From contig JAYNIM010000001.1 of the NCBI GenBank assembly GCA_038109055.1, forward strand, positions 500,631-564,630: DNA of 64,000 nucleotides, written 5' to 3'. Under the pieces are notes generated by a model. That model made no database searches. It had not been told where the DNA came from and saw only the letters and a list, made by a program, of their open reading frames with translations. Below are positions 31,118 through 34,100 of this stretch, one piece after another. A program made the position numbers and the translations under genes. Numbering within the stretch: the first letter of the stretch is position 1; each line of letters begins with the position of its first letter. This DNA comes from a bacterium (GTDB lineage: Bacteria; Margulisbacteria; Marinamargulisbacteria; GCA-2716485; JAYNIM01).

Positions 31118-34100
31118 ATGGGTTCAAGGAATGTTGTTATGGATAGTATAGAAAGGTCAATAGAAACTACACCTCCATCCCCACTCTCACCTTTAGCAAA
31201 AGGTGAGGATTTACCCTCTCAAGCAACTTCTTCTGCTTTATCTCCTTCTATTAAGACAGATCCTACTGATATGGGCGAGATTTTTCATGAAAATGGAAGC
31301 GTCTATGAAGGTCCTTTAAGCAATGATCTTCCGCATGGAGAAGGTAAACTGATATATCCTGGTGTTTCTACATTAGAAGGTGTTTTTTCTAATGGGCATT
31401 TGGTTAATAGTTATGGGAAGATATCTTATCAAGAAAAGGGAGATTACCCTGGTGCTTCATATCTAGGTAAGGTCAATAATCGCTGTCAACCGCAAGGACC
31501 AGGCACAATGATTTTTAAGGAGGGTCTGGTTTTAAGGGGGAATTTTGATAAAGTTCATCAATGTGTTGTTAAGTATAATGGTGCTTCGGGTGCCTATACG
31601 GGTAGTATAGATAAACGTGGTTACCCATATAATGGATCAGGGATGTTTATGGACAACGCAGGAAACGTATTTGAAGGGGTCTTTATTGATGGTAAATATC
31701 ACAAAGAAGATACGTTGAGTCGACAGGAGCCTCATAGTCCCCCGGCTACCACTCGTCTTGCTGGGGTTACTTATGATTCTTTATCAGACATCTCTTCAAC
31801 AGTAGCTCTTGTTCAAAATATCCATCACCAGGTTCAAACATTGATTGATTTCCCTGATGGGGCAGGTTATAAAGATTCTGCGGGTGTTTTGCAGGCGCTT
31901 TTACATGACAGTAATCCGTTTTTGAATGTTCTATTTTCTGATCATGAGACTGTTAATCACTCTTTTCCTATTGGGACATTGCGTTCCTATCTTCTTCACC
32001 CTGCCCCTCCTAAAAGGGCATTAGCCATCCAAAACCTTTCTCGTTTGTGTATCAACCAGTTTGCGCACTATGAAAGAAGTGATCCATCATCTCCTGAAAG
32101 TGCCATTAGACGCTATGCCCTGATGAAAATTTCGGGGCTACTGTTTCAGATGGCGATGTGTTGTTCGACGGAGGACTCTATTCCTGATGATTTTAAAAAG
32201 GCGCTACTTTTAGATGTACAATCGTTATTTTTTAATCATGTTGCGACCTTTGCTGATTCAGGACTAGCTTCAGGGTCACCTATACCAGACCTCATTGAAC
32301 GTCATACGGGTATTCCTGATATTGGGTTAGAACTACAGGCCGTTAGGATGTATATGTCTGACATGTCTGCTAGTTCTGCTTCTTCTGAATTGGCCCCTTC
32401 ATCAGAGCACTATAATGTATTACCTAAAGAATATGGCCAATATTTTTGTGTAGAAACCTTCCCTGTCGAACATCCCTCTGATGATCTTAGCGATATTTCC
32501 TTGCTTTCACCTTATTCTGCAAGTGATCTTAACTTTCATCTATTTCCAAGTGATCGCAGCGTACCCACTGTTAGAATTAGAGGTGCTTATACTCATCGAC
32601 TTGCTCTTTATCCTCGTCGATATTCTGCTCTCCCTGCTGTTCGTCTTGATACGGCGAGTTCTGTTGAGGATGATACTGCTGATCTTTCTGCAGCTTTACC
32701 TGCACAGGCTCCTTCGAGTCAGTCTGTTATGGGTCCGTCTCTTCCTAACCAAACTTTTGGCCCTCACGTCCCTCACGTTTCATCTGAGACTAGGATTTCC
32801 TTAGGTTCTGACCCTCGAAATGATCCGACTATACGTGCAAACGCTGTCTATGCGATCTATGATACAACTGCCCCTCCTGTTGATGCTGCCAGTAGTCCTC
32901 CTGACACAGCTGATTTGTTTAGACCCTTAGCTGCCGCGACTGAAAAAAGATCTACATTCGAAGAGACCTTACATCGTTTTATTGCTTCACTACCTCCGAA
33001 GTTTCAAAAACAGGCTGCTGATTGGTATTCTCGTAAATCAAGGTTTGATTCTACAACACCTCATTCTGATCCACTTAGGCTTCTTGAAAATATCTTAACT
33101 GACATGTTTAATTCTTCGAATATTATAAGCGATCATGGTGCAGGTAAGTTTCATCGTGTATTTTTTGATACTAAGGAACATACATGGAAAATGACTATTA
33201 TTCTGCCTGATGGTGATCATGCAACATCGTTACTCAGTGAGTGTGACCAAGATCTGTCTCAGTCTCATTCCGAACAAGCTATCTTTGATGCCATGGTAGC
33301 AGGACTGGGCCAAGATGGAGATGACCCCTTTGCAGATGACCCCTTTGCAAACGTTAGCCCCGATGATTTAATTAAACTTCTTAAGTCATCTTTTCATTGT
33401 AGTTATAGTGGGTCTCTTTCTGATGTAGACGATCCAATCTATCAAGAATTTAAAAAATTTGAACCAGCTTACTTAACAAATCCTGATCCTAGAGTTACGA
33501 ATCAGAATCTTACTCATTTTAGACGACAAATTTGTATACTGTTAGAACGTAAAGATCCCGATCGTTACACTGGCCTCACATCGTTGTTTAATGATCTAGG
33601 AAAGTATGGTGGTTATACCTTCGATGAACATCAGTTTCATAACGGAAAATGGAAGGACTCTACCTATGCAGAGGCCTGTGGGGACTTTTTAACTGCCCTT
33701 TCACATCGGGAGGGTTCTAATACCGACCTCAGTAGACTATCTCCAGAGTATATTCCGGCTTATCACCAATTAATGCAACGGTTTACGCCGGGTGATAGAA
33801 AATGGATTTTACTTCAACCTACTACTATCACTAATCTTATAGAGGCCTTAAACTCAGGATATGATATCGACTTTTTAGAAGGTCATCTTAGACAGTTATT
33901 GTGTGATCCTGCAACCTCTGCAGCTGCAGGGAGTTCTGGTACTACGATAGCTCCTGCAGATTCTCAGCCTGCAATACCTGCCATAAAACCTAGTTCAACT
34001 CTGATGGCTTGTTTGCCTTCCCGTGTTACTCCACAAAATAGTTCAGGAAAAAAGGAAATAGTTCTTAACTTTGATTCAGTGGACACACTTAATCAATGTG

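Follow-up and report, generated by a model that had tools for sequence, protein, structure and literature searches.

Probable in-frame loss of a USP deubiquitinase module between short direct repeats in one of two tandem paralogues of a Marinamargulisbacteria genome

USP-type deubiquitinases are rare in bacteria, and the study that added three of them from Simkania (SnUSP1-3) named only TssM of Burkholderia before its own (PMC10643670). NADAR enzymes, which are related to YbiA, are ADP-ribosyl hydrolases (PMC11668277). In bacteria, short direct repeats that lie about 1.2 kb apart are well documented as sites of RecA-independent deletion (PMC7145654). Here we describe two neighbouring genes, A and B, in a 64,000-nt stretch of a Marinamargulisbacteria genome (GenBank assembly GCA_038109055.1, contig JAYNIM010000001.1, positions 500,631 to 564,630 of the forward strand). 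We refer to this whole stretch as the window, and all coordinates below are positions within it. Gene A encodes a predicted USP deubiquitinase that ends in a NADAR-like domain. Gene B has the sequences that flank the USP region of A, and it joins them directly at a single GTTCT pentamer. We think it likely that B lost the USP block when replication slipped or switched template between short direct repeats.

Like TssM and SnUSP1-3, gene A has a USP domain with Cys, His, and Asp boxes and a GHY motif, and the domain is part of a large multi-domain protein. However, gene A has no detectable close relationship to these proteins, its USP domain is fused to a NADAR-like domain, its activity is predicted from sequence, and the USP domain appears to have been lost in gene B. 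The Pfam family UCH (PF00443) matched residues 417 to 747 of A with 53.9 bits (E = 2.5e-14; cut-off, 23.9). The Cys box, GNHCYANATIQ, and the His box, GHYV, aligned to USP14, and the GHY motif places an aromatic residue after the catalytic His. The positions of the catalytic triad are C425 (nt 28352-28354), H717, and D738, the last of these in the Asp box LND. By profile and boxes, gene A is a member of the USP/UCH peptidase family C19 and a predicted deubiquitinase. The Pfam search of gene B found no UCH match, and all three catalytic boxes fall within the block that is absent from B. With every catalytic residue gone, B cannot act as a USP deubiquitinase.

Both proteins end in a NADAR-like domain. 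The C-terminal matches to NADAR (PF08719) had E values of about 1e-7 and were below the cut-off of 35.1, with 32.7 bits for A (aa 838 to 1005) and 31.7 bits for B. TIGR02464 gave an E value of 0.0056 against this region, and a PDB sequence search with the NADAR-like domain found no match. Each of the two large genes, which lie on a contig of 709 kb, is followed by an identical 255-codon open reading frame (ORF) that Pfam assigns to DUF481, at 30250-31017 after A and at 35104-35871 after B. The best explanation, which we hold with reasonable confidence, is that A and B are tandem paralogues in a duplicated two-gene cassette, in which a large effector-like protein is followed by a DUF481 outer-membrane protein. 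Promoter and terminator scans gave background levels. The features of the locus are collected in Table 1.

Table 1. Features of the A/B locus, in window coordinates
Feature	Coordinates	Strand	Description	Basis
Gene A	27080-30202	+	1,040 aa; NCBI VW378_02355, MEK9657200.1; annotated start probably 27086; layout: orphan N-terminal region, helical pre-domain, USP deubiquitinase domain (predicted), linker, NADAR-like C-terminal domain	ORF and translation
Left shared patch in A	28042-28087	+	FGPHVSSETRISLGS; ends in the left GTTCT	
Block present in A, absent from B	28088-29314	+	aa 337-745; ends in the right GTTCT (29310-29314)	
Right shared segment in A	29315-29439	+	Probable last USP strand NAVYAIYD, then Pro/Ala/Ser linker ending LAAA	
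Repeat copy 1	29432-31028	+	NADAR-like domain of A, intergenic spacer, DUF481 copy 1 (30250-31017)	
Gene B	31118-35056	+	1,312 aa; VW378_02365, MEK9657202.1; annotated start 31139; layout: MORN-like repeats, N2 module, scar, probable USP remnant and linker, orphan middle module, NADAR-like domain	
N2 module of B	31796-32683	+	aa ~227-522; motif RRYALMKISGLLFQ; absent from A	
Left shared patch in B	32755-32809	+	Contains the 9-bp tandem duplication CCCTCACGT (32761-32778)	
Scar	32805-32809	+	Single GTTCT joining A-like 28087 to A-like 29315	
Probable USP remnant and linker in B	32810-32937	+	DPRNDPTIRANAVYAIYD...LAAA; first 47 nt identical to A	
Orphan middle module	32938-34285	+	aa 608-1056; bounded by GCTGCCGC (32930-32937) and GCTGCTGC (34286-34293)	
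Repeat copy 2	34286-35882	+	NADAR-like domain of B, DUF481 copy 2 (35104-35871)	

To locate the junction in B, we aligned the two genes by blastn. A 28048-28087 and B 32770-32809 were identical at 40 of 40 positions (E = 1.7e-15). A 29310-29439 and B 32805-32937 were identical at 121 of 133 positions (91%), with one 3-bp indel (E = 3.8e-49). In B, these two A-like segments adjoin, and they overlap by the GTTCT at 32805-32809. The pentamer occurs once at the B junction and twice in A, at 28083-28087 and 29310-29314, where both copies share one codon phase. In A, 1,227 bp, or 409 codons, separate the two segments, and the reading frame is kept in B. The left match reaches A 28042 and B 32755 once the 9-bp duplication of B, CCCTCACGT, is allowed for. 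An earlier note on this DNA, made by a model from the letters alone, had placed the breakpoints at these GTTCT repeats, with a separation of 1,227 bp in A and a 9-bp tandem duplication in B. The nucleotide alignment bore this out in every coordinate, the protein-level matches quoted in the note were found as well, and the E values show that the flanking similarity is significant. No further copy of the segments shared by A and B was found within the window. When 200,000 random in-frame deletions within gene A were simulated, a junction microhomology of at least 5 nt arose in 0.95% of them.

The block that is absent from B begins with 80 helical residues outside the USP domain (aa 337 to 416), and its remainder is the USP domain, Cys box included, up to 7 residues after the Asp box. 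The leading part (aa 337 to 417, nt 28088-28330) had a weak match, below threshold, to the ubiquitin-binding GAT domain PF03127 (E = 0.0077, 16.9 bits). The earlier note had spoken of an excision of the whole USP domain. All catalytic boxes are indeed in the block. However, the block also takes in the 80 upstream residues, and the USP match runs 2 residues beyond the breakpoint. The Pfam UCH match ends at profile position 241 of 254 in native A and at position 238 of 254 in A cut at the breakpoint. We also used a hidden Markov model (HMM) of the USP tail, made from the tails of nine USPs, of which the USP2 tail was checked and is identical to PDB 2ibi_A. Residues 705 to 746 of A aligned to positions 4 to 41 of the 58 in this model, and 17 canonical positions, including the terminal AYxLFY strand, lie beyond the break. 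In the structures of USP21, USP8, USP15, USP4, and Ubp8, the alignment to USP2 continues through the AYxLFY strand. Beyond the break, A has a single stretch that is both hydrophobic and strand-like, NAVYAIYD (aa 756 to 763, nt 29345-29368), and it is kept in B as aa 575 to 582. We suggest that it is probably the last USP strand, left in B as a remnant. A phmmer search of the A USP tail against the PDB gave an alignment that stopped short of the last strand, and BLASTP of the A tail against the USP2 tail found no match.

We propose the following course of events. The ancestor of B would have carried the same USP block as A. Recombination or gene conversion would have kept the homologous stretches of A and B identical, save for about 100 bp, about 11% diverged, beside the middle-module heterology. 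A recent, single, RecA-independent event, either replication slippage or template switching, would have cut 1,227 bp from B between the same-phase GTTCT pentamers. This deletion would have taken the residues equivalent to A 337 to 745, comprising the helical pre-domain together with all three catalytic boxes of the USP, and the frame would have stayed open. NAVYAIYD would have stayed in B as an orphan remnant, in a protein that still carries the MORN-like repeats, N2, the middle module, and the NADAR-like domain. As in the RecA-independent deletions described before (PMC7145654), the repeats are about 1.2 kb apart in the long allele, one copy is present in the short allele, the loss is precise, and slippage duplications lie nearby. 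In contrast to those deletions, the repeat here is just 5 nt, and the event is deduced from two paralogues of one genome, with a direction that is not proven.

The presence of one repeat copy in B and two in A is formally symmetrical, and bacterial USP domains are generally thought to derive from eukaryotic hosts (PMC10643670). The contiguous state of B could thus be ancestral. In this scenario, A gained the 1,227-bp block of pre-domain and USP, and GTTCT is a target-site duplication or the trace of paired microhomology joins. We consider such a gain improbable. The block has a GC content of 0.394 and a GC content at third codon positions (GC3) of 0.279, the same as the rest of gene A. No inverted repeats were found at its ends, and it has no transposon features. 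A transposon or insertion sequence with target-site duplication was considered and rejected, because terminal inverted repeats are missing, the block is in one continuous in-frame coding stretch, and its GC and GC3 are native. An inserted block would also have had to land in frame. Deletion is favoured because one event suffices, whereas insertion would take two precise in-frame joins. It is also favoured because the break is inside the USP profile. The final 13 to 17 profile positions are absent from the block, and an inserted block would be an incomplete domain that pre-existing sequence had to finish. Furthermore, the fully native composition and the lack of inverted repeats agree poorly with a foreign insertion as recent as the identical flanks would demand. 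Finally, B has other slippage products, which also argues for deletion. These are the 9-bp duplication and a slippage-type 15-bp tandem duplication inside the middle module (33316-33345; TGGAGATGACCCCTT / TGCAGATGACCCCTT), which encodes DDPFADDPFA.

Identity between A and B is a mosaic, which the earlier note had not picked up. The 46 bp to the left and the 47 bp to the right of the scar are identical to A (no substitution in 93 bp, the 9-bp duplication aside). The next 78 aligned bases have 9 substitutions, four of them synonymous, and the 3-bp indel (Fisher p = 6.6e-4 for 0/93 versus 9/78). B then runs through its unique stretch of about 1.35 kb, and the first 31 bp of homology after it have 2 mismatches. 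By blastn, A 29432-31028 and B 34286-35882 are 99.56% identical over 1,597 bp, and the 7 mismatches are all at the edges. Within these limits is a perfect direct repeat of 1,524 bp (29463-30986 and 34317-35840), which covers the NADAR-like domain, the intergenic spacer, and most of the DUF481 gene (Fisher p = 1e-12 for 0/1524 versus 9/78). Along the pair, identity goes from 100% to about 88%, then through unique sequence, and back to 100%, and the divergence flanks the middle-module heterology on both sides. This pattern fits a homogenization of A and B by gene conversion, with conversion tracts that stop short of the large heterology, or a recent re-duplication of the 3' end. The DUF481 gene downstream was duplicated or converted together with the 3' end of its large neighbour. 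As in the concerted evolution of tandem paralogues, long identical tracts (1,524 bp) lie beside tracts of about 11% divergence next to a large heterology. However, a segmental re-duplication of the 3' end in the very recent past would leave a pattern indistinguishable from that in A and B. The scar is in a fully identical tract, which would make it younger than the last homogenization, and we infer that it is recent.

The identical patch around the scar can also be read in another way. It is 100% identical to A amid a diverged or unrelated neighbourhood, and B is a demonstrated mosaic of at least two families. B may never have had a USP domain, and 32755-32856 may have been copied from two sites in A, by template-switch repair synthesis or by two short conversions. 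We regard this history as doubtful at best. Homology is needed to start such an event, and there is none to the left of 32755. It would still involve a template switch at the GTTCT microhomology, and it would differ from a deletion in B only in when the USP was skipped.

Several observations weigh against the loss of the USP block from B, or against parts of it. The collections searched held no outgroup and no homologue of A or of the junction region of B; therefore, the direction rests on internal evidence. One assembly only spans the junction. A left flank of 46 bp, beyond which homology ends, is an unlikely substrate for gene conversion; recency of the deletion explains the identity there but lacks independent support. 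As for the remnant, NAVYAIYD was in the top ~1% of window 8-mers in a motif scan, yet it was not the best in A. Deleting four loop residues extended the Pfam match to position 248 with a gain of 1.4 bits, versus 0.7 to 1.0 bits for shuffled tails. A model of A 337 to 800 made by AlphaFold2 (AF2) without an alignment had a predicted local distance difference test score (pLDDT) of 37 and was unusable.

We also considered whether the junction or the tandem order might be an artefact of misassembly across repeats or strain variants. The source is a single metagenome-assembled genome (MAG), a perfect repeat of 1.5 kb is hard to assemble, and the full-length A and B proteins were found in NCBI only. 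Nevertheless, we judge an artefact to be very unlikely. An overlap of 5 nt is too short for a misjoin in a de Bruijn graph. The upstream flank of B (31018-31117) differs from that of A, and the two genes can therefore not be alleles of a single locus. Neither ORF is interrupted, and that of B runs for 1,312 codons. Logan contigs of two runs match the window at 100%, SRR26337569 over 39885-35811 and SRR26337570 over 38015-35820, both downstream of the scar. The SRR26337569 contig ends 30 nt, and the SRR26337570 contig 21 nt, past the last base that distinguishes the copies, 35841. A length of 30 nt is k-1 of a 31-mer graph, and such contig ends are expected if the reads hold both copies.

The middle module is the second large difference between the two genes. 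Compared with A, it is an indel of 1,356 bp, or 452 codons. GCTGC is present at both ends of the module in B (32930-32934 and 34286-34290), and A keeps one copy. The earlier note had described a unique stretch of about 1.35 kb that rejoins A-like sequence at GCTGC, and both points agreed with our alignment. The note had also suggested a search for the module elsewhere. We found no copy elsewhere in the window, no homologue among 1.84 billion representative proteins, and no match in Pfam. The composition of the module is native (GC, 0.398; GC3, 0.252), and a foreign composition was rejected for the USP block and the middle module alike. An AF2 model made without an alignment had a pLDDT of 45.8 and was unusable. 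The note had proposed that B gained a new middle module, but such a gain is not required. Because the module shows the same signature as the USP scar, with a 5-nt direct repeat that bounds it in B and one copy in A, its loss from A would be at least as plausible as its gain in B.

This leads to a history of reciprocal loss, which is a tentative possibility. In this scenario, the ancestor had both the USP block and the middle module. After a tandem duplication, A lost 1,356 bp at GCTGC and B lost 1,227 bp at GTTCT. Both indels are multiples of 3, and each is bounded in the longer allele by a perfect 5-nt direct repeat that has one copy in the shorter allele. The native composition of the middle module and the lack of a donor for it, in the window or among the representative proteins, point the same way. 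Divergence on both sides of the indel (9/78 bp on the left and 2/31 bp on the right) is expected of an old heterology that blocks conversion. However, GCTGC lies in a run of alanine codons (LAAA / AAAS), where short repeats often arise by chance, and there is no outgroup. In addition, the unrelated N-terminal halves of A and B demand at least one further rearrangement anyway. Reciprocal loss extends the loss of the USP block from B without contradicting it. In its fullest form, which we consider unlikely, a larger ancestor with USP, middle module, and NADAR was duplicated and then trimmed by complementary in-frame microhomology deletions, that of the USP being very recent, and conversion keeps the shared parts identical. 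A would then be the first bacterial protein of USP plus NADAR type, and B would be its natural USP-less control.

The N-terminal half of B has a different origin. Residues 1 to 546 of B had no similarity to residues 1 to 321 of A in a protein comparison. We dropped a distant homology between the two N termini, given a Smith-Waterman z of less than 1.5 and an hhalign probability of 0.13%. At the N terminus of B, MORN (PF02493) scored 20.1 bits versus a cut-off of 22.5, and the best outside homologue of B (E = 3.9e-14) and two weaker ones carry PF02493. The N2 module had no matching Pfam family. An exhaustive HMMER search with B aa 200 to 1100 against the 1.84 billion representative proteins found only A, B, and two others (E = 2.6e-20 and 6.6e-09). 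N2 is common to VW378_07670 and VW378_05155, both of the same MAG, and the C-terminal parts of these two proteins are unrelated and have no Pfam domains. Therefore, B is a chimera of two families, with a 5' part from the N2 family and a 3' part from the A family. The earlier note had derived B from an A-like gene by a microhomology-mediated, in-frame loss. Deletion is still the more likely direction, but the N-terminal half of B is unrelated to A and the gene is chimeric, and a simple descent from an A-like gene does not account for all of B. A separate similarity links N2 to the middle module. Over 40 nt, 31810-31849 and 34240-34279 are 73% similar and in phase, and they encode the first N2 helix (VQNIHHQVQTLID) and the last helix of the middle module (AQIIADAVQTWID). 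The second of these sites is just before the GCTGC boundary, and the similarity may be due to chance.

The architecture of B recalls the terminal reassortment of type III effectors, which was reportedly described by Stavrinides, Ma and Guttman in 2006. The likeness is that three proteins of this genome share N2 but continue into unrelated C-terminal parts. In contrast to type III effectors, those of this organism have no known secretion system, secretion signal, or host, and the label effector is drawn here from the eukaryote-like domains of these proteins. The term terminal reassortment is used in PMC7406222 and PMC5675462.

We then looked for relatives of these genes and of the organism. When A, B, and the isolated USP domain served as queries in word-index protein searches, self matches were the only ones, apart from MORN proteins for B; these negatives are weak, as the search missed even the paralogue that shares 256 identical residues. 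A search of the genome collection found no relative of A, and a search of the Joint Genome Institute (JGI) metagenomes found no relative of the shared C terminus or of the N2 alignment. Nothing matched A, B, DUF481, LepA, or a fragment guessed to be a 5'-truncated NADAR in exact look-ups. Of the window sequences that were looked up, only the menC-like neighbour was recovered, in two Logan contigs. Among 185,579 GTDB species representatives, none exceeds 61% identity to LepA (21934-23727, minus strand), and the best matches are spread over Clostridia, Proteobacteria, Chlamydiae, and Bacteroidota. The MAG thus appears to have no sequenced near relative.

Elsewhere in the window, a flagellar gene cluster occupies 10286-20994 on the minus strand. 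It includes genes for a FliF/YscJ family protein (11095-12588), the P-ring protein FlgI (15403-16476), and a FliK-like hook-length protein (19777-20994). Chlamydiae, the phylum that includes Simkania with its USPs, do not typically carry such flagellar genes. A 644-aa ORF at 53372-55306 (minus strand) combines a methyltransferase-like N-terminal region (aa ~47 to 191) with a C-terminal D-Ala-D-Ala ligase domain (aa ~342 to 637). Two large ORFs are almost without a family match, one of 777 aa at 47418-49751 (minus strand) and one of 646 aa at 2915-4855 (plus strand). The only match of the 777-aa ORF was a YadA-head repeat at threshold, and its product may be adhesin- or effector-like.

For mechanism, the locus offers nothing new, as short-repeat deletion and gene conversion are textbook processes. 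The USP domain joined to a NADAR-like domain in gene A is an interesting candidate fusion, because bacterial USPs are rare and NADAR enzymes are ADP-ribosyl hydrolases. The pair provides a natural comparison, with and without a USP, on a common NADAR-like domain, which would matter only if the organism is found again and the proteins are tested. We suggest that the locus is an unusually legible case in which a bacterial multi-domain gene would have lost its catalytic module in one step with the frame unbroken, and for which an undeleted sister copy 4.7 kb away serves as the reference.

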